From Candidatus Aenigmatarchaeota archaeon (GTDB lineage: Archaea > Aenigmatarchaeota > Aenigmatarchaeia > QMZS01), in NCBI GenBank assembly GCA_016932615.1, contig JAFGCN010000018.1, positions 3,495-67,494 of the forward strand: a DNA stretch of 64,000 nucleotides. Direction: 5' to 3'. The notes beneath the pieces are model-generated. The model did not search any database and was not told the DNA's origin. It was given only the letters and a program-made list of their open reading frames with translations. The translations under genes were made by a program, and so were the position numbers. Shown here piece by piece: positions 1-45,780 of the stretch. Every line of letters begins with the position of its first letter. Within the stretch, counting starts at the first letter, position 1.

Positions 1-459
1 CCAGGCGCAGGGCTGAACCTTTATCTTGCTTGTCTTGAAGTCGAGCTCCCCGTAATCGTATCTAACTGTGCAGTTACGGCCGACCCCTCTTTCATCGACA
101 CCCTTGCCTACAAGATACCAGTCATCCCCCCTCAAAAACCAAATCTTATTGATGCAAAGGTCATAATCTCCATAAATCCTAAGGCCCTCAGGGTAAACCG
201 GCTCATTAAACGAAAAGACAATTTGCGCAGAAAGGTTCCAGCTTTGCTTCTCCCAGGAAGCGTGGTCTATTGGCGCTGTGCCGCAGTCCAGGTCAGAGTC
301 CGGAGCCCCTATTGCGTATTTTGCCTCATGGCCTAAAAGCTCGCTTGTCGCATCTGCGAAAAGCGCATACTGGCAGGTTTCCCCTGCATTTGCTGGAGAC
401 AGGCAAACCACAAATATTGCCAGAATAAGCAATTCCCGAAATCCTGCCCTTTCTTTCAT
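1..459 (-). CDS. secreted hypothetical protein, truncated by the window edge
   Basis: Own minus-strand translation from ATG at 459: MKERAGFRELLILAIFVVCLSPANAGETCQY..., with a signal-peptide-like N-terminus. The frame stays open to position 1. It is absent from the ORF track because it has no stop in the window. Confidence 0.55.
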   Translation of the reverse strand, partial: MKERAGFRELLILAIFVVCLSPANAGETCQYALFADATSELLGHEAKYAIGAPDSDLDCGTAPIDHASWEKQSWNLSAQIVFSFNEPVYPEGLRIYGDYDLCINKIWFLRGDDWYLVGKGVDERGVGRNCTVRYDYGELDFKTSKIKVQPCAW

Positions 460-489
460 AAGTGAAAATGAAATAAGGTATTAAGCCGC

Positions 490-1206
490 TCAGCCAGGAT
501 ACCTTACCATTATAGTCACATTTCTCATGAGAAATGATTCAGGGCCCTGTTCAACTGAGCTTTGCATCCCCACATAGACATCAATTTTCTTCCCTTTCTC
601 GCCGTGAAAAGTGTCACCAGTATGGAAAACCTTTGACTCCAAAAGCTCATTAACCCACGGCTCGTTATTCGCTGAATCTTTACCGAGGTCCAGAAATATT
701 ATTTCAGTTCCCTTTGGAAGCGGCGGGTTTACTGCAACGCTTGGCTTATCCCCCGTCCAGGGCACAAGCTCATTTTGGTAAGCCCCAATCGAACGTTTTT
801 CCAGATAGTAGGTTTTTCCGTCATCAAGCTGATAATCGTAATGCAGGTATTGCCCGGAGTTATTTATTTCGTCCCCTTTTCCAGAGCCGTCCACCATTGC
901 CTGCTCCAAAAAGTCCTCCCTGTAAAAGCCAAGGGAATTTCCAAACTCGTCAAATACCTCCACCTTCTTCCCACTGTACAGCCGCTCATCCAGGTTTTGG
1001 TAAGAAGTAACTGTCCAGCCACTGGAAACTTCATACCTGCCAGAAACTTCCGGTACCTCCCTTAATACAATAACGGGGCTGCTATCTGCGCCATCTAAAT
1101 CCAATACTGGGGCCGCTACTGACAGAATTATTGCTAAAACAATTGCTGCGCCCAGAACAATAAGCATATTGCCTGATGGCCCAAAATATTTTTTTGACCT
1201 CCCCAT
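490..1206 (-). CDS. membrane-anchored 3D-domain (MltA-like lytic transglycosylase fold) protein
   Basis: N-terminal TM (LIVLGAAIVLAIILSVAAPVL). The C-terminal stretch SVAVNPPLPKGTEIIF...TGDTFHGEKGKKIDVYVG resembles the 3D-domain signature (IAVDP..G..., GD.G..I.G..ID.Y). Confidence 0.5.
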   Translation of the reverse strand: MGRSKKYFGPSGNMLIVLGAAIVLAIILSVAAPVLDLDGADSSPVIVLREVPEVSGRYEVSSGWTVTSYQNLDERLYSGKKVEVFDEFGNSLGFYREDFLEQAMVDGSGKGDEINNSGQYLHYDYQLDDGKTYYLEKRSIGAYQNELVPWTGDKPSVAVNPPLPKGTEIIFLDLGKDSANNEPWVNELLESKVFHTGDTFHGEKGKKIDVYVGMQSSVEQGPESFLMRNVTIMVRYPG

Positions 1207-30000: not shown

Positions 30001-30374
30001 GGGCCCGTAGCTCAGTCCGTATCCCTTTCTTTCCAAAAGAAAGGTCTAAGGGTCACCCCAAAGAAAGGGTTTCCCTTGGCTAATTTGGTCAGGAGAATAG
30101 GATACGGGAGCAATTTGGATAGAGCGCTTGGCTTCGGTTGAGCCCTTTTCTCGCGAGAAAAGGTTTCAATCCCAAAAGAGGCATATTCCTGCTTCGCAGA
30201 AAGAATGCCTCAGGGGAAGGACTTGTTCAGCCAAAATGCCTGCATTCGTCCAGAAGTATCAGAAGGTACCAGGAGGTCGGGGGTTCAAAGTCAGGCTTTC
30301 TTTCTAAAGAAAGAACGCCCGACACCTCTAAGAAAGAACTCTTCTTGGAGAAGATGAAAATCCTCCCGGGCTCA
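30001..30374 (+). tRNA. tRNA-Arg(TCG) interrupted by three introns
   Basis: Exons are approximately 30001-30016 GGGCCCGTAGCTCAGT, 30115-30137 TTGGATAGAGCGCTTGGCTTCGG, 30268-30289 ACCAGGAGGTCGGGGGTTCAAA and 30361-30374 TCCTCCCGGGCTCA. Joined, they give a 75-77 nt cloverleaf. The acceptor GGGCCCG/CGGGCTC has one G-U, the anticodon stem is CTTGG/CCAGG, the T arm is GGGGG-TTCAAAT-CCTCC, and the anticodon TCG is at 30134-30136. Confidence 0.85.
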
Positions 30375-30435: not shown

Positions 30436-30495
30436 TTCTTTGGGGTTGTCAGCCCTTTCTTTTTAGTGAAACTCCCGGAAAAGAAAGGTATGACC
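30436..30495 (-). repeat. solo copy of the tRNA-intron hairpin element (subfamily 1)
   Basis: ttctttggggttgtcagccctttcttt..(loop insertion)..aaagaaaggtatga is the reverse complement of the TCATCC-CTTTCTT-loop-AAGAAAGG-TCTGACAACCCCAAAGAA consensus. No tRNA exons surround it. Confidence 0.7.
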
Positions 30496-30556: not shown

Positions 30557-30606
30557 TTTCTTCTGGGGTTGTTAGACCTTTTCTTTTTCTAAAGAAAGGG
30601 GCTGAC
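30557..30606 (-). repeat. second solo copy of the tRNA-intron hairpin element (subfamily 1)
   Basis: ttcttctggggttgttagaccttttctttttctaaagaaaggggctgac has the same block order as the 30436-30495 copy. Confidence 0.65.
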
Positions 30607-36426: not shown

Positions 36427-37233
36427 ATGGAAAGCCCGCCCAAAAAGGGAACTCCTGGCAATATTCAGGATATAACTGGGCCATATATCGCTTCTTTAGC
36501 TTTACCGCAAGGAAAATACACTTCAACTGCAGCCGCTCCGCCCACAGGCGCAAGCTATAATTCTTCCGGGAGCTCCGCAACTTCCGGAAACACAATTGTA
36601 AACAATACCATGGCTCAGTATGAAAACGCCACTGGCAAAACTGCAGTTCCTGTTTCTGCTTCCGGACAGTATAACGGCGCTCATGCTCCAGGAAGCAGGC
36701 AAAGCATAGTTTCAGGCGTTAATGGCACATATTCTTCGGGAGGAATTCAAAGCCCCGTTGCAGGGCGTCCGGGCGCGCCTGCTTACGATAGTGGTATGGC
36801 TTCCCAGTTAAAAGCGAACCCTCAGGTTCCAGGAAGAAGGTCTCCAGCGAGCAGTGGAACCCAAATGGCAGGAACTGCACTAAAAACCTTTCTTCCGGTA
36901 GGGCTTGGGCTAATGGCTTCTTCTGCCTGGTACGGAATTGCAATTAAGGGCTCCTATGCAGCATCCAAGGATGCAGCCACCTCGCCCCAGTTTGCCGAAT
37001 TTATGAGCCAGCACAGCTGGTTTGCCCCTGCACCCCTTATTGCAGGAACCGTAGCGATATACCTTGGCTCAAGGGTTTCAGGCCGGATTTTCAAAGGGGT
37101 CATGAAATATTCCTCAGGCATTATGAAAAAAATAGAAAACAAAAAAGCCGCCAGAGAGCTTGAAGCGGGCTATGAGCGGCTTGCAAAGGCCGCGGCACTT
37201 CCCGTCACTCCAAAAGCAGCCCCAATTTCCTAA
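36427..37233 (+). CDS. P3: paralog of P1
   Basis: 268 aa. S/G/A/P/N-rich N-terminus, TM segments FLPVGLGLMASSAWYGIAI and APAPLIAGTVAIYLG, and a basic tail collinear with P1. Confidence 0.6.
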   Translation: MESPPKKGTPGNIQDITGPYIASLALPQGKYTSTAAAPPTGASYNSSGSSATSGNTIVNNTMAQYENATGKTAVPVSASGQYNGAHAPGSRQSIVSGVNGTYSSGGIQSPVAGRPGAPAYDSGMASQLKANPQVPGRRSPASSGTQMAGTALKTFLPVGLGLMASSAWYGIAIKGSYAASKDAATSPQFAEFMSQHSWFAPAPLIAGTVAIYLGSRVSGRIFKGVMKYSSGIMKKIENKKAARELEAGYERLAKAAALPVTPKAAPIS

Positions 37234-38614: not shown

Positions 38615-39319
38615 CTATATCCTAAAACCTAAAGGTAGTACTCTTTTTGCAGGAGGTGGTCTTATGCCAGTTCTTTCCAGAACAACACTTGCTTTGATGG
38701 GACGACCTATCAGAGAAAGACCTCGCTTCGCCCTCTCTTCCTCTTCCATAGCTCCCGTAAAGACTTCCTGTCCAAACTCTGGCTGCCTTATCTCACCACC
38801 AGAATACCTTAAGTCAAGCTTAAACCTACCCTCAGGGGTCCTGCTTCTTCCAACTACATCAAACCTAAGCAAAACATCGCGGTATTTAAGATATATCTCC
38901 TTTCCCATATCGCCCCGATACAAAAGATTACCTCCACTCAAAAAAGCCCCCTCCAGCTTGCTTGCCGGGTCTGAGCCAAGAATATGCCTCATTGCGGGGT
39001 CATCCCCACGGTAGTCGGACTCACCAAAAGCATAGTAAAAAGCCCTTTCAACCAACCCTGGATTATGCCCCGATTCATTGGAAGGGACAGTAACCTGTAC
39101 TTCATACCGACCCGGGCGATATATCCACCCTTTGCCTTTTAGGTAATCATATTTCCCAGGGGGGCGCCTTTTTTTCAGGGAAGGGGGAGGATCATAACCA
39201 TTATATGTATCAAACGCTTCTGTTGGAGCAGGTATCATCAGCATCCAGCACCGTATCCTGACATAATAAACTACTTGGATAAAAAATAAAATACACAATC
39301 GGGCAGAACCCGGGGGCAT
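38615..39319 (-). CDS. hypothetical protein (start uncertain)
   Basis: The track ORF starts at a GTG (39346). The first ATG is at 39319, with others at 39244 and nearby. N-terminal hydrophobic segment; no recognised motif. It occupies the position where rpl3 would normally precede rpl4. Confidence 0.4.
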   Translation of the reverse strand: MPPGSARLCILFFIQVVYYVRIRCWMLMIPAPTEAFDTYNGYDPPPSLKKRRPPGKYDYLKGKGWIYRPGRYEVQVTVPSNESGHNPGLVERAFYYAFGESDYRGDDPAMRHILGSDPASKLEGAFLSGGNLLYRGDMGKEIYLKYRDVLLRFDVVGRSRTPEGRFKLDLRYSGGEIRQPEFGQEVFTGAMEEEERAKRGLSLIGRPIKASVVLERTGIRPPPAKRVLPLGFRI

Positions 39320-39405
39320 CCCAACTCCAATAACACAAGCAACCACACCAGTTATAACAATTAAAGTGAACCACCCTCATGTCAAGAACACGGAGAGTTC
39401 AAGGA

Positions 39406-39651
39406 TTAGAATAGGCGTCTTCCGAAAAAAGCTACTGACGTCAGTCCATTAAGCCAGTTGGAAGCGCACCTGCACCCTCCAACAGTGGTATCTGTTAGGC
39501 CAAAAAACAGGGGAAAGGCAAAAACCGAAACTCCGGAAAGGGCTAAAATAGTACCCATAGTAATTCTTGTAAGCCCCCTGCCCAATTGATATACCGGGTT
39601 TTTTGGGAGTGGCCTGACAAGCTCAAAAAGCCGCCTTATATGCTCAAACAT
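39406..39651 (-). CDS. small membrane protein (hypothetical)
   Basis: The track start (39660) is a GTG and the first ATG is at 39651. One clear TM (ILALSGVSVFAFPLFFGL). Confidence 0.3.
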   Translation of the reverse strand: MFEHIRRLFELVRPLPKNPVYQLGRGLTRITMGTILALSGVSVFAFPLFFGLTDTTVGGCRCASNWLNGLTSVAFFGRRLF

Positions 39652-39735
39652 AATCTTCACCAGATAATTGGTTTACCATTCAGGGCTTAAATACTTTTCT
39701 TAGAACGGCAATAGTCGATAATCTGGGAATTCTGC

Positions 39736-40085
39736 CTATTTCCAGGTCTTGTCCAGCCCGGTTACGATCCCAAGTGTTGCGGAAATTCCCCCATAAAATC
39801 CGCTGTGCTCGCATCCATAATTGACGATATCCCAAAATGTTGCCGTTTGGTCCATCGCGGCCTCAACAGCGCAGAGGACTCCAAATGATGCAAGCCCTAC
39901 CGGGAGGGCATATCTAGTGAACTTAAGATCCCACTGCTGATCTTCATCCAGGTCATGAAACTTTGGAATTCGGGAGCCAATTTCCCCGGCAGCTCATTTC
40001 TGGGCGTTCCTGCCCCATAGAGAGAGGTACTCCTCCACAAGTCAAGCCCATGTCGCAACTTATCAGTAATGTATGCTTCCCCCAT
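39736..40085 (-). pseudogene. possible frameshifted small gene
   Basis: Frame A runs from ATG 40085 to the stop at 39897 (MGEAYITDKLRHGLDLWRSTSLYGAGTPRNE...). A second frame is open from about 39990 to the stop at 39736 and looks protein-like (..IPKFHDLDEDQQWDLKFTRYALPVGLASFGVLCAVEAAMDQTATFWDIVNYGCEHSGFYGG..) but has no start codon of its own. Confidence 0.25.
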
Positions 40086-40099
40086 AAATAGCAAATGGC

Positions 40100-40110
40100 T
40101 TATTTTTAAA
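40100..40110 (+). promoter_or_regulatory. TATA-box-like element upstream of tRNA-Leu(TAG)
   Basis: ttatttttaaa is centred about 26 nt upstream of the tRNA 5' end. A near-identical box precedes tRNA-Leu(CAA). Confidence 0.45.
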
Positions 40111-40130
40111 CAAAATTGAGCTTAAGTTAT

Positions 40131-40468
40131 GCGGGGGTCGCCAAGTCTGGTCTCATCCCTTTCTTAAAAGAAAGGTCTTACAACCCCAAAGAACGGGATA
40201 CCAGAAAAAGGTGCAAGGCTTAGGTGTCTTACCGGCACCTGCAGGTGCAATGCCCAGGAGCTTGGCTGAGAAACCTTGTGGGTAAATCTTTTTCTTTGGA
40301 AAAGAAAAAGCTTTAATCCAAAAAGAAATAAGATTCCACAATAGTCCCTACGTGAGTTCGAATGAAGCTTTTTCTCGCAAGAAAAAGCTCCAGGACCAAA
40401 AAGAGGCAGTTTCACCGCTTCGCGGATAAAACTTGCCGAATTGGTTTACGAAAGTCTCACCCCCCGCA
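40131..40468 (+). tRNA. tRNA-Leu(TAG) interrupted by three, and apparently four, intervening sequences
   Basis: Exons are approximately 40131-40152 GCGGGGGTCGCCAAGTCTGGTC, 40203-40224 AGAAAAAGGTGCAAGGCTTAGG (anticodon TAG 40221-40223), 40273-~40285 ACCTTGTGGGTAA, ~40336-40362 ..CCACAATAGTCCCTACGTGAGTTCGAA and 40455-40468 TCTCACCCCCCGCA. The acceptor GCGGGGG/CCCCCGC is perfect, the anticodon stem is CAAGG/CCTTG, and the T arm is GTGAG-TTCGAAT-CTCAC. Boundaries of the variable-arm insertion are uncertain. Confidence 0.8.
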
Positions 40469-40498
40469 TTATCTTTTAAGCCCTGCCAAGTACTGTAA

Positions 40499-40891
40499 CT
40501 ATTCAATTGTTTCGTTCGGGCTCGGAACCGCCGGAATCCAGACGCACTTGTTCTGACGGCACTTAATCTCAGTCTCCTTCGGCCCGGTTCCGCACTGATA
40601 GCTGCACTCCGCGCATTCCTCCCGATATTCAAGAACAGACTCTTCCAAGCGGGTAATGTTTGCATCAAGACTAACCAGGGTGTGGCAGCCAAAGGGGCAG
40701 CCAAATGAAGCAACGCTACAGTCAGAATCGCTCTGGCAGTGATTTTCCTCGCCCAGAAGCGCAAATAGATCATCCTGGCGGCCCTGGCAGGCGGTTTGTG
40801 ACACCTGCCCCGCAAAGTGCCCAATCAAGAATATAGCGCCAACCGCCATAAGAAAGACAAAAGAAACCGCAAAAAACACCTTTTTGCCCAT
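40499..40891 (-). CDS. small Cys-rich secreted or membrane-anchored protein
   Basis: The internal ATG (40891) gives MGKKVFFAVSFVFLMAVGAIFLIGHF (signal/TM). A Cys-rich domain follows (CQG..CQSDSDCSVASFGCPFGC..CAECSYQCG..CRQNKC). Confidence 0.5.
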   Translation of the reverse strand: MGKKVFFAVSFVFLMAVGAIFLIGHFAGQVSQTACQGRQDDLFALLGEENHCQSDSDCSVASFGCPFGCHTLVSLDANITRLEESVLEYREECAECSYQCGTGPKETEIKCRQNKCVWIPAVPSPNETIE

Positions 40892-40990
40892 AATTCTCTT
40901 ACCGCAGGATATAATTACCATTCGGTGCCTTATTGCCCCTAATAGATAGGTCAGAAGAAACCTAGCTTTAATATATCTGCAAGGGAAATT

Positions 40991-41515
40991 ATGAGACCTG
41001 AAATCGACTTGATTCCCCTTGATAATGTAGACCAAACGACCGTCGAGGAGCTTAAGCGCTCTCTCAAGGAGAAAGGGTGCATTGTACGGCTTTATGCAAG
41101 GACACACAGCCCTAAAACGGCAGAGAACCTCTACAGAAAGCAGTGCCTTGTAGACGTGATTGTCGACGCCCTGAAGGGGCTTTCAGGAAAGGTCATCGCC
41201 ATAACAGACAAGGACCTATACTCAAACAAGCTTAATTTCGTATTTATGTCGGTCCAGCCAAACGGGCCTGTAGTCCTTTCTACCCATCGGCTAAGGCCGG
41301 AATTTTATCAGGAAAGGCCGAACAATGACCGGACAACAAGCCGTCTCCTGAAAGAAACAATCTACTGCATAGGAAAGATGAATGGGATTGGTGACTGCCC
41401 TAATCCCAGGTGCATAATGCACAAGTCCGCTTCAGCCAGGGACATAGACTTCAAGTCCGAGGAATTCTGCAAGGACTGCAAGATAAACAATATTGTAGAC
41501 AATATGAGATTATGA
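40991..41515 (+). CDS. archaemetzincin (M54)-like protein lacking the HExxH catalytic motif
   Basis: VIAITDKDLYSNKLNFVFMSV...VLSTHRLRPEFY... is collinear with AmzA. The canonical HExxHxxGxxxC-x4-CxM-x16/17-CxxC site reads YCIGKMNGIGDC-PNPR-CIM-...-CKDC. The Cys4 site is kept, but H, E and H are replaced by Y, C and K. Confidence 0.65.
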   Translation: MRPEIDLIPLDNVDQTTVEELKRSLKEKGCIVRLYARTHSPKTAENLYRKQCLVDVIVDALKGLSGKVIAITDKDLYSNKLNFVFMSVQPNGPVVLSTHRLRPEFYQERPNNDRTTSRLLKETIYCIGKMNGIGDCPNPRCIMHKSASARDIDFKSEEFCKDCKINNIVDNMRL

Positions 41516-42372
41516 GCGCAAAAAAACAGTCCGGAACAAAGAAAAGAGCAAAGGCTGTCGACTTTGAGGAAAGTGCAAGTTTTTCCGAAGAGGAAGAAAC
41601 TGCAGAGGTTTTGAAAAGCGCCAAAAAGCCAAAGGGCGTGAGCAAAAAGAAAGAAACCGGGGCAAAGACAAAAAAGGCCAAAGCTCAGGAAGAAGCCACC
41701 ATTGACGAAGAATTTGCTGAAGAACGGGATGATGATTCCGGTGAGGAAGAAACAGACGAAGATTACGGGGAAGGAGATTACGACGAGGCAAAGCCAAAAG
41801 TATTCCAGGAAGAGCCGTTTTCAAAAGCCCCAAAAAAAGTCTATTCCGGAAAATTCTTTGAAAACAAAGTCCACATCTGGGGAAAGCAGGACGCCGAGGA
41901 GATTTATGACCTTGGCTGCTTTGGAAAGGTAGACGAGGAAAAAAATGAGCTTTCCTTTGAGGAAGCCCTTTTGCTGATGAGGCGAAACAAGCTTCGGGTT
42001 TCAAAAGATGGCACGGAGGTAAGCTCTGAAGAATTCTACCAGATTGCCTGCAATGCCGACAAAGAGTTTCCCTGGAAGTTCAAGGTTTACGAGGAGCTTA
42101 GGGGAAGAGGCCTTCTTGTCAGGACTGGCTTCAAGTTCGGCACCCATTTCAGGGTTTACGGCAGGGGAGTCAAGCTGAAGAGAGGGCCAAAGTCAGTAAA
42201 GGAGCACACAAAGTGGATTGTCCATGCAGTCCCCGAGAACTACACCTGCTCATTTCCAGAGCTTTCCAGAGCCGTCCGGCTGGCGCACAACATCCGGGCA
42301 AAGATGCTCTGGGCAGTTGTTGACGAGGAGGGAGATGTGACCTATTACGAGGTTTTAAGGAAGACTCCTTAA
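41512..42372 (+). CDS. endA: tRNA-splicing endonuclease EndA with a roughly 110-aa K/E/D-rich N-terminal extension
   Basis: The C-terminal GLLVRTGFKFGTHFRVYGRG...KEHTKWIVHAVPE...LSRAVRLAHNIRAKMLWAVV carries the EndA catalytic Tyr/His/Lys contexts. The N-terminus is MSAKKQSGTKKRAKAVDFEE...KKKETGAKTKKAKAQEE...DDDSGEEETDEDYGEGDYDE. Its ATG overlaps the upstream stop (ATGA). Confidence 0.85.
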   Translation: MSAKKQSGTKKRAKAVDFEESASFSEEEETAEVLKSAKKPKGVSKKKETGAKTKKAKAQEEATIDEEFAEERDDDSGEEETDEDYGEGDYDEAKPKVFQEEPFSKAPKKVYSGKFFENKVHIWGKQDAEEIYDLGCFGKVDEEKNELSFEEALLLMRRNKLRVSKDGTEVSSEEFYQIACNADKEFPWKFKVYEELRGRGLLVRTGFKFGTHFRVYGRGVKLKRGPKSVKEHTKWIVHAVPENYTCSFPELSRAVRLAHNIRAKMLWAVVDEEGDVTYYEVLRKTP

Positions 42373-42390: not shown

Positions 42391-42954
42391 ATGGATTTGA
42401 TTGCTTTGCTGCAGAATACGCTCTACTTTTTTGTAGCTTCTGGAATCATAGCTTTGTTGATTAAGTCATTGATTAAATTATACTTGGATAAAGACTTGGA
42501 AGCTTATAAAGAGAAACTGAAGCAAGAAACGATACGGTATTCAAAACTGCACGAAAAGAGAGCAGATGCTATAGAGGAACTATTTGAAAAACTTGTTGAT
42601 TATAAGAATTATGCTGAAGGTGTGAAATGGGCTAAGGAAAGTAATATTTCTGGAAAAGAATTGAAGGAAATCGAAGAAAATTTCAGGATAGCACATAGAA
42701 CATTTTTGGATTGTTTGAATAAAAAAGGCAATCTTTATTTCGGCGGCAAGACTCCAGAGCTTTTGGAAGCACTACACTTTGAAATAATGCGAACCAAAAC
42801 ACACACCGAGGCAAAATGCAAAGATGGAAAGAACATGGACTTTACAAGCTTAAAGAACATTCTCGAGGATATCAAAAACGCAGAAAAGGCAGTAGCAAAC
42901 TCAGAAAAAGAATTAATCAATGAATTTCAAACCATCTTGGGTGTCAAAAACTAA
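42391..42954 (+). CDS. hypothetical protein with an N-terminal TM and a coiled-coil region
   Basis: 187 aa. LYFFVASGIIALLIKSLIKL is a TM. The coding sequence is visibly A/T-rich compared with its neighbours. Confidence 0.45.
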   Translation: MDLIALLQNTLYFFVASGIIALLIKSLIKLYLDKDLEAYKEKLKQETIRYSKLHEKRADAIEELFEKLVDYKNYAEGVKWAKESNISGKELKEIEENFRIAHRTFLDCLNKKGNLYFGGKTPELLEALHFEIMRTKTHTEAKCKDGKNMDFTSLKNILEDIKNAEKAVANSEKELINEFQTILGVKN

Positions 42955-45426: not shown

Positions 45427-45780
45427 TGCAGGAGGGCGGATTTTCGCCTATCCCTTTCTTTAAAAAGAAAGGTCTGTGGGTCACCCCAAAGAAAAAACTT
45501 TTCGTTCTTCCCAGGTGCCACATTATCCCCGTTCTGGTTAAAGAACGGAGATTACTTCGAACCGCCGAACTTACTAAAAGACTGGATGTCTCAATCGCCA
45601 TCGTTTCTGCGAAGCGAATTTGCTTCTTGGGGTTGTCAGACCTTCTTGCAAGAAGGGATGACCTTGAGTCCAGCGCCTTTTTCTGGTATACTATAACCCA
45701 AATTTTTGTTTCTTTGGGGTTGTCAGACCTTCTTTCTTTTCAAAGAAAGAAGGGATGAGACCAGACTTGGCTACTCCTGC
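45427..45780 (-). tRNA. tRNA-Leu(CAA) interrupted by three introns
   Basis: Minus-strand exons are approximately 45780-45759 GCAGGAGTAGCCAAGTCTGGTC, 45684-45661 AGAAAAAGGCGCTGGACTCAAGGT (anticodon CAA = + strand ttg 45664-45666), 45587-45556 (A)TCCAGTCTTTTAGTAAGTTCGGCGGTTCGAA and 45440-45427 TCCGCCCTCCTGCA. The acceptor GCAGGAG/CTCCTGC is perfect, the anticodon stem is CTGGA/TCCAG, the variable arm is long, and the T arm is GGCGG-TTCGAAT-CCGCC. Confidence 0.85.

Follow-up and report, generated by a model that had tools for sequence, protein, structure and literature searches.

According to the tRNAscan-SE 2.0 paper, archaeal tRNA genes carry up to three introns, and a review from 2014 gives three as the maximum per gene. 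We analyzed a stretch of 64,000 nucleotides (hereafter the window, 64 kb) from an Aenigmatarchaeota archaeon of the DPANN group, in which positions 40131-40468 of the forward strand hold a tRNA-Leu(UAG) gene whose sequence is best read as containing four introns with bulge-helix-bulge (BHB) motifs, one of them inside the variable arm. An earlier note on this DNA had given three introns as the published limit. This holds for reviews and for the tRNAscan-SE 2.0 paper but not for Supplementary Data 4 of Valentin-Alvarado et al. (2024), a table on Asgard archaea that has columns for a fourth intron (PMC11291895). In that table, the Freyarchaeia Arg(TCT) and Ile2(CAT) genes have four introns by both tRNAscan-SE and R2DT, and the Freyarchaeia Leu(GAG) and Atabeyarchaeia-2 Trp(CCA) genes by R2DT; 92-95% of the tRNA genes in these two groups are interrupted (PMC11291895). 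These predictions resemble our gene in intron number and differ in belonging to another superphylum, in standing as table rows without junction analysis or cross-genome comparison, and in length (143-231 nt from the listed coordinates versus 338 nt here; PMC11291895). Our full-text literature searches returned no paper claiming four introns in an archaeal tRNA gene. Since the Asgard table lists such genes, archaeal tRNA genes with four introns are not without precedent and this one is not a first, which weakens any claim to a record; the Asgard cases are undiscussed, and we found none reported for DPANN.

Two other systems are close to this locus. In Thermoproteales (Pyrobaculum, Caldivirga, Thermofilum), multiple introns per gene are found together with an endonuclease that has an extra loop, very similar introns occupy different positions and genes, and intron transposition has been described (PMC4033280, PMC4090602, PMC8450103). 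Surveys of these Thermoproteota give at most three introns per gene, and their endonuclease is an (alpha-beta)2 enzyme with a crenarchaeal loop, whereas the DPANN locus studied here is accompanied by a single alpha unit with a DPANN-type loop. At 48-130 nt, the introns of the window exceed the usual length in Thermoproteales, and a further difference is that most of them share a module made of a hairpin and a purine box. In the nucleus of the red alga Cyanidioschyzon merolae, tRNA genes are disrupted by BHB-type introns, ectopic ones included and several to a gene, that lie at 37/38, in the D- and T-loops and in one case in a variable arm, and RT-PCR showed that they are excised stepwise; this alga is a eukaryote, none of its genes has more than three introns, and some are also permuted (PMC3728597).

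Gene layout and predicted splice junctions of the tRNA-Leu(UAG) gene

The gene occupies 338 nt and consists of five exons and four introns, arranged as follows.

40100-40111, + strand: TATA-like element TTATTTTTAAAC, read from the sequence as a putative promoter and centred about 26 nt 5' of the first tRNA base
40131-40152, + strand: exon 1, 22 nt; 5' acceptor strand, 5' strand of the D stem and D-loop as far as GGTC (end at 40153 in register A)
40153-40206, + strand: intron 1 (I1), D-loop, 54 nt; register B, central helix CTGG/CCAG; bears the hairpin and purine-box module
40154-40205, + strand: I1 in the alternative register A, 52 nt; central helix TGGT/ACCA and contiguous inner helix ATCCC/GGGAT
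40207-40224, + strand: exon 2; end of the D-loop, 3' strand of the D stem, 5' strand of the anticodon stem and anticodon loop to G37, with TAG at 40221-40223
40225-40272, + strand: intron 2 (I2), canonical 37/38 position, 48 nt; full hBHBh' motif, central helix CTTA/TGAG
40273-40283, + strand: exon 3; A38, 3' strand of the anticodon stem, 5' strand of the variable stem and first base of the variable loop (ACCTTGTGGGT)
40284-40341, + strand: intron 3 (I3), inside the variable loop, 58 nt; HBh' motif; alternative register 40285-40340, 56 nt
40342-40362, + strand: exon 4; remainder of the variable loop, 3' strand of the variable stem, 5' strand of the T stem and T loop to A59 (TAGTCCCTACGTGAGTTCGAA)
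40363-40454, + strand: intron 4 (I4), T-loop, position 59/60, 92 nt; hBH motif, with the 5-bp T stem as outer helix and central helix TTCG/CGAA
40455-40468, + strand: exon 5; T60, 3' strand of the T stem, 3' acceptor strand and discriminator A73, CCA not being encoded
40469-40477, + strand: T-rich stretch TTATCTTTT immediately 3' of the discriminator, a likely transcription stop

The exon pieces quoted in the earlier note were all present at this locus: the acceptor GCGGGGG/CCCCCGC, the anticodon stem CAAGG/CCTTG with anticodon TAG, and the T arm GTGAG-TTCGAAT-CTCAC. Once joined, they give a class II tRNA-Leu with variable arm T-GGG-TTAGT-CCC-TAC, anticodon TAG, A73 and a 3-bp D stem (GCC/GGT). 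The mature variable loop TTAGT also occurs in the Leu(CAA) paralogue of the window, whose variable arm (T-CTT-TTAGT-AAG-TTC), noted before as short, contains no intron. With the preferred registers the mature tRNA has 86 nt, below the 88-91 nt expected at first; the alternative registers give 88-90 nt. The existence of an insertion in the variable arm was likewise borne out while its extent was not: it runs over 58 nt from 40284 to 40341 instead of about 40286-40335, and the AA 3' of TGGGT and the CCACAA 5' of TAGTCCC are I3 sequence and not exon.

To locate the junctions, we scanned for a BHB rule of a 4-bp helix with a 3-nt bulge on each strand and a cut after the second bulge base. One strong candidate was found at each of the four places where insertions had been proposed (D-loop, 37/38, variable arm and 59/60), and all four showed 4/4 central pairs and 3-nt bulges at the boundaries that restore the tRNA. 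The flanking helices differ among them. I2 is the only strict motif, with an outer helix (h) of 7 bp, a central helix of 4 bp and an inner helix (h') of 3 bp. I1 has an h' of 5 bp in register A and I3 an h' of 6 bp with an h of 2 bp, both being of the HBh' form, and I4 has an h of 5 bp (hBH). The I3 motif, the relaxed structure sought at the variable-arm junction, consists of the central helix GTGG/CCAC, the 5' bulge GT|A, the 3' bulge AA|T and the inner helix AATCTT/AAGATT (6 bp). When the introns were shuffled with boundaries fixed, 4/4 central pairs arose with a probability of 0.018-0.063 per insertion, and central plus inner helices as good as those observed with a probability of 5e-5 for I3, 1e-4 for I1 in register A, 1.35e-3 for I2 and 0.028 for I4. 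Junctions of I3 quality occurred at 359 of 7.1 million position pairs on the + strand of the window. The 338-nt precursor folded at -115.9 kcal/mol (z = -5.26 against shuffles), and its minimum-energy structure holds the acceptor stem and the I1, I3 and I4 motifs at once, I1 appearing in register A.

We then asked how many introns the locus is best read with. The unspliced 64-kb window gave no tRNA with ARAGORN and no family with Rfam at the gathering score, so the gene is visible only after the insertions are removed. Running ARAGORN on the window with its intron options gave no call at default settings and 139 implausible calls at a lowered threshold, which were not used. After removal of the four introns, ARAGORN called tRNA-Leu(tag) of 86-90 nt in all four register combinations, whereas no call was obtained when the variable-arm segment was retained and the other introns removed. 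As a filter of splice combinations, acceptance by ARAGORN was too permissive (45 and 112 combinations with wrong anticodons passed) and was replaced by a profile hidden Markov model (HMM) of Leu(UAG) genes without introns, 83 distinct ones from the fetched loci. We enumerated all 22,434 non-overlapping sets of at most five BHB-compatible introns leaving 80-94 nt. The top set contained four introns (65.7 bits, I1 in register A) and was followed at 61.6 bits by a four-intron set with the variable-loop intron moved by one base; the best sets with five, three and two introns reached 54.2, 44.3 and 28.9 bits, respectively. Register B of I1 had been filtered from the enumeration owing to a one-base offset of its inner helix. 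Scored separately, the product with I1 in register B reached 73.3 bits over all 86 profile positions. This register also yields the D-loop of the intronless homologues and keeps the four central pairs in two related loci (L215 and L230). On the strength of the score, the homologous D-loop and this conservation, I1 at 40153-40206 is preferred. These results support four introns, one inside the variable arm, as the best reading of the sequence.

We propose, with a probability of about 0.85, that this is a working tRNA-Leu(UAG) gene of a DPANN archaeon in which five colinear exons and four BHB introns encode an 86-nt tRNA. A 338-nt precursor would be transcribed from the TATA box about 26 nt upstream; at each junction, four exon bases would pair with four intron bases between flanking 3-nt bulges, and the endonuclease EndA encoded 1 kb downstream would cut both bulges of every motif. 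An RtcB-type ligase would then join the exons and probably circularise the introns, and CCA would be added afterwards. I2 and I3 would probably be removed one after the other, because I3 draws on G43 of the anticodon stem for its central helix.

Within I2, the 3' half (GTGCRAWGCYCAGR...TTGGCT) was much better conserved than the other introns when the related loci L215, L220, L128, L126 and L171 were compared, the 3' part being 92% identical to L215 over 39 nt. The CTTGGC of I2 is complementary to the GCCAAG of the exon 1 D arm and may represent a pairing specific to the precursor.

Related loci, neighbouring tRNA genes and a shared intron module

Relatives of the locus were collected by pattern scans, and are designated here by L numbers where they must be told apart. 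A genome scan with an exon-1 pattern was too broad, returning tRNA-Leu from many phyla; among the matches listed, two were useful. L005 is a syntenic Aenigmatarchaeota metagenome-assembled genome (MAG) from Guaymas with the same gene order (tRNA-Leu/archaemetzincin/EndA/TruB) and 65-71% nucleotide identity; the Leu(CAA) gene of L005, like that of the window, is interrupted three times, in the D-loop, at 37/38 and at 59/60. L088, a Methanomethylicaceae MAG, has an intronless Leu(UAG) gene with exons near-identical to those of the window gene. A metagenome scan with an anticodon-arm pattern gave L220, L215 and L230, which are 72-84% identical across the tRNA locus and its flanking genes, and the more distantly related L128, L126 and L234. 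L171 and L228 form a third lineage. The gene order tRNA-Leu/archaemetzincin/EndA/TruB is also conserved in L220. A/T-rich boxes stand at the same distance upstream in L220, L215, L128 and L126, and T-rich tails like that of the window gene also trail the orthologues.

An insertion in the variable loop was found at the identical site in eight loci (L220, L215, L230, L228, L171, L128, L126 and L234), with the shared form TGGGT|A...CCAC(or CCAT/CCAA)NN|(T/A)AGTCCC. Its length is 28 nt in L126 and L234, 36 nt in L128, 47 nt in L171, 48 nt in L220, 58 nt in the window, 96 nt in L215 and 119 nt in L228; in L230 it is interrupted by the contig end. In the minimum-energy folds of every complete I3, (T)GTGG pairs with CCAC(A) in the HBh' form, and the inner helix is preceded by a 3-nt 5' bulge in all complete cases except L128 (2 nt). 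In the junction alignment of eight sequences, 88.5% of the cells were paired, versus 32-52% when the 3' partners were slid. Four inner-helix pairs changed on both sides (AATCTT/AAGATT, CGCGT/ACGCG, ACCC/GGGT and AGCC/GGCT), and the covariation score was reached by none of 500 shuffles. The exons of the window gene are 91-97% identical to those of its relatives and exon 3 is identical across all eight orthologues aligned, whereas the introns are 17-77% identical (I3, 38-58%). This combination of conserved exons and drifting introns argues both against a retained long variable arm and against a pseudogene.

The number of introns differs between lineages. Four long introns are present in the window, L220 and L215; L128, L126 and L234 have I2, I3 and I4 with an 11-nt insertion in the D-loop; the Leu(UAG) genes of L171 and L228 have I2 and I3 only; and L172 has D-loop and 37/38 introns and no I3. 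Since L171 and L228 carry I2 and I3 only, comparison of the sequences indicates that I3 is older than I1 and I4 in this gene, and that it dates back at least to the divergence of the window's lineage from that of L171/L228. The 11-nt insertion reads GGTCAA|ATATAGGCTAA|AGG in L128 and GGTCAA|AGATAGGCTAA|AGG in L126 and L234; a GGTC/GGCT helix of 4 bp around a loop of 7 nt is possible, and the insertion would be a bulge-helix-loop mini-intron at the I1 site of the window.

The window contains three tRNA genes with ten introns together. The two other genes are the following.

30001-30374, + strand: tRNA-Arg(TCG) with three BHB introns, missed by ARAGORN and Rfam
30016-30113, + strand: D-loop intron of tRNA-Arg, 98 nt (this and the next two from the BHB scan)
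30138-30267, + strand: 37/38 intron of tRNA-Arg, 130 nt
30290-30360, + strand: 59/60 intron of tRNA-Arg, 71 nt
45780-45427, - strand: tRNA-Leu(CAA) with introns in the D-loop (76-78 nt), at 37/38 (75 nt) and at 59/60 (115 nt), and none in the variable loop

For tRNA-Arg, a reading with four introns, one of them in the anticodon stem, was also considered and abandoned, as the BHB scan gave one canonical intron of 130 nt and three introns in total.

Nine of these ten introns carry the same module, namely a hairpin whose 5' strand is pyrimidine and whose 3' strand is purine (e.g., CCTTTCTT-AA-AAGAAAGG), followed after a linker of 7-13 nt by a purine box, for example CCCCAAAGAA. This box is almost a second copy of the 3' hairpin strand, which gives the 5' strand two possible partners. 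The module sometimes comes with a second hairpin with a CTTCG loop, as in I4. One copy, in the T-loop intron of Leu(CAA) at 45453-45493 (+ coordinates), is antisense to its host, and two free-standing copies, at 30436-30488 (-) and 30558-30597 (-), combine the hairpin with GGTCTAACAACCCCAGAAGAA and GGGCTGACAACCCCAAAGAA, respectively. These last two lie between the tRNA-Arg gene and the next open reading frame (ORF), on the opposite strand and outside recognised genes, with an A/T-rich TATA-like box between them. No strong copies were found elsewhere in the window. Across the window introns and L220, L215, L230, L128, L172, L171 and L228, copies of the module, up to 95% identical, turn up in several tRNA genes and at various positions. 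The third intron of the window tRNA-Arg is 94% identical over 49 nt to I4 of the L220 Leu(UAG) gene and 90% identical over 40 nt to the L230 D-loop intron; the L215 T-loop intron and the L230 variable-loop intron are 95% identical over 43 nt; and I4 of the window gene is 75% identical over 69 nt to the second intron of tRNA-Arg. Between L126 (2831-3091) and L234 (4910-5117), which are 98.4% identical over 508 aligned bases, there is one 53-nt indel, located in the Leu(UAG) T-loop intron, where it marks a recent insertion or deletion. The exact linker and box variant of the window genome was absent from all 240 fetched loci and from the viral contigs, and scans of viral contigs for the module and for the I3 junction gave no match. 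The recurrence of intron sequences across sites and genes is similar to the transposition of introns known from Thermoproteales.

Two further interrupted tRNA genes with hairpin and purine-box modules were seen in these loci, one in L172 at 400-660 (-), with D-loop and T-loop introns, and another downstream of Leu(UAG) in L171. The module matched no Rfam family. A reading of it by eye as a K-turn, C/D-box or H/ACA element was discarded, since CUGA is not conserved from copy to copy and there is neither a C box nor a pseudouridylation pocket.

These similarities bear on the origin of the introns, and a possible account, which complements the four-intron gene and which we put forward tentatively, is that the insertions are copies of a mobile DNA element of about 45-55 nt made of the pyrimidine/purine hairpin and the purine box. 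Such an element might land in either orientation, might survive inside tRNA genes since BHB splicing takes it out of the transcript, and might spread at the DNA level between the D-loop, 37/38, variable-loop and T-loop sites, between tRNA genes, and into introns and intergenic DNA. The presence of the module in nearly all window introns, the antisense copy and the two copies outside recognised genes, the near-identical introns at different positions, the 53-nt indel and the absence of the exact variant from the fetched loci are all in line with it. However, we identified neither terminal repeats nor target-site duplications nor a transposase; the likeness between introns could also arise by gene conversion among them or from a shared ancestral intron; and the two free-standing copies could be remnants of a decayed gene. 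In addition, RNAalifold predicted no pairs from a MAFFT alignment of 19 module copies, because stem and loop lengths differ between copies, and thus gave no consensus structure. If true, this origin would explain how an 86-nt gene came to contain four introns, and the element would be one not described before.

The splicing endonuclease and the competing readings

A gene for the tRNA splicing endonuclease lies close to the tRNA-Leu(UAG) gene.

41512-42372, + strand: EndA, tRNA splicing endonuclease, 286 aa from the probable start Met at 41512, about 1 kb downstream of tRNA-Leu

The ORF (41410-42372) contains both endonuclease domains (Pfam PF01974 and PF02778), and TIGR00324 was matched over its full length, which indicates one complete alpha unit. 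The likely start at 41512 is just ahead of the archaemetzincin stop at 41515. The first approximately 110 aa are charged and of low complexity, nearly all Lys, Glu, Asp, Ala and Ser; this N-terminal extension had no match in PDB or Pfam, and a long extension of this kind is not described for the DPANN enzymes in PMC5829648. In PDB, EndA matched the enzymes of M. jannaschii, N. equitans (alpha unit) and ARMAN-2. Relative to M. jannaschii, it has an insertion, KLKRGPKS, between the catalytic Tyr and His, where it aligns without gaps to the N. equitans alpha unit and to ARMAN-2 EndA. Kaneta et al. (2018) described a loop L3 shared by Nanoarchaea and ARMAN-2, found in single-unit endonucleases of several DPANN lineages and tied to more disrupted tRNA genes in DPANN (PMC5829648), and we infer that the loop found here is L3. 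There are differences too: in N. equitans the tRNA genes are split and the enzyme is alpha-beta, and the enzyme of ARMAN-2 has three units, whereas the window has colinear tRNA genes and apparently a single unit. A DPANN-type loop fits the need to cut three relaxed motifs, and EndA is the enzyme expected to cut all four introns.

Four other ORFs on either side of the tRNA gene, at 40499-41107 (-), 38615-39346 (-), 36427-37233 (+) and 42391-42954 (+), of 187-268 aa, had no match in Pfam or NCBIfam; the first, which overlaps the archaemetzincin gene at its start, may be spurious.

Several observations weigh against the four-intron reading. For both I1 and I3 the motif fits in two registers that differ by 1 nt, which leaves the exact junctions and the choice between 86 and 88-90 nt unfixed, and register B shifts the inner helix of I1 by one base. 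I3 has an outer helix of 2 bp only and I4 lacks a contiguous inner helix; three of the four motifs therefore rely on an enzyme of broad specificity, and this breadth is presumed from the literature on the loop (PMC5829648), a single EndA unit being seen within the window. Among the relatives, the D-loop junction of L220 has 3/4 central pairs by hand inspection, and the strict I1 motif was not found by the scan in L220 or L215, being weak in the latter.

Other readings of the locus were weighed, none of which we consider probable. We give little credence to the locus being a decaying or silent pseudogene overrun by insertions. Four insertions in an 86-nt gene, all with repeat-like modules, do resemble insertional decay, and other Leu(UAG) genes could exist beyond the 64-kb window. 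Yet, besides the contrast between exons and introns across lineages, all stems of the spliced product are intact, the promoter-like and T-rich flanks are kept in all orthologues, a cleavable junction is kept at every insertion, and the two other tRNA genes of the window are built likewise. The gene is most likely functional.

Just as improbable in our view are more than four introns, with I1 or I4 made of two nested or adjacent introns removed stepwise. Stepwise removal of closely spaced archaeal introns is known (PMC8450103), and the D-loop insertion of L220, which has no strict motif, was best split into BHB-like pieces of 65 and 14 nt. In the window, however, the best five-intron set scored below the best four-intron set (54.2 versus 65.7 bits), and I1 and I4 each have a complete outer pair of cut sites.

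Slighter still are the chances of there being three introns only, with the 58-nt segment kept as part of an unusually long variable arm. In favour of this, long variable arms are tolerated in class II tRNAs, the segment on its own forms a stable stem, and the 2-bp outer helix makes the 3' cut site of I3 the least defined of the eight. With the segment retained, not only was the ARAGORN call lost but the profile alignment split into 38.8 + 13.2 bits, versus 73.3 bits when it was removed. Moreover, the length (28-119 nt) and sequence of the segment drift among orthologues while the flanking exon bases and GTGG/CCAC are fixed and the inner helix covaries, which is the pattern of an intron and not of a recognised arm; in L230 it is nearly identical to a T-loop intron of L215, and its removal leaves the loop of the Leu(CAA) paralogue. 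The proposal that the variable-arm insertion is a fourth intron was therefore upheld by its HBh' junction, conserved and covarying in eight related loci, and by the effect of retaining it.

Self-splicing group I or II introns and a split or permuted gene can be dismissed, as the insertions are 48-92 nt long with no Rfam family at gathering score in the window, and as the 338 nt contain all five exons on the same strand and in their normal order. A search of 39000-42000 against Rfam, with E allowed up to 10, gave only chance-level matches (E of at least 0.85); a match to ciliate telomerase RNA, produced by CAACCCCAAA, was one at chance level.

Consequences for tRNA genes in DPANN archaea

The 2018 endonuclease paper predicted that the tRNAs missing from DPANN genomes are undetected disrupted genes and asked for manual curation (PMC5829648). 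The three tRNA genes of the window are missed by ARAGORN and by the Rfam tRNA model, so that genomes of this DPANN clade will seem to lack tRNAs, which can distort completeness estimates and claims of host dependence. In the four-intron reading, one tRNA needs four cut-and-join events, three of them at relaxed motifs and one in the variable loop. In some archaea, the variable loop is reportedly a recognition element for leucyl-tRNA synthetase, according to work in Haloferax. Of interest beyond the number of introns are a conserved variable-loop intron with covariation support and a family of intron sequences that recurs across sites and genes. Overall, with two introns, three plus a mini-intron, or four introns at fixed sites, the relatives of this locus form a natural series for the gain of introns in archaeal tRNA genes.

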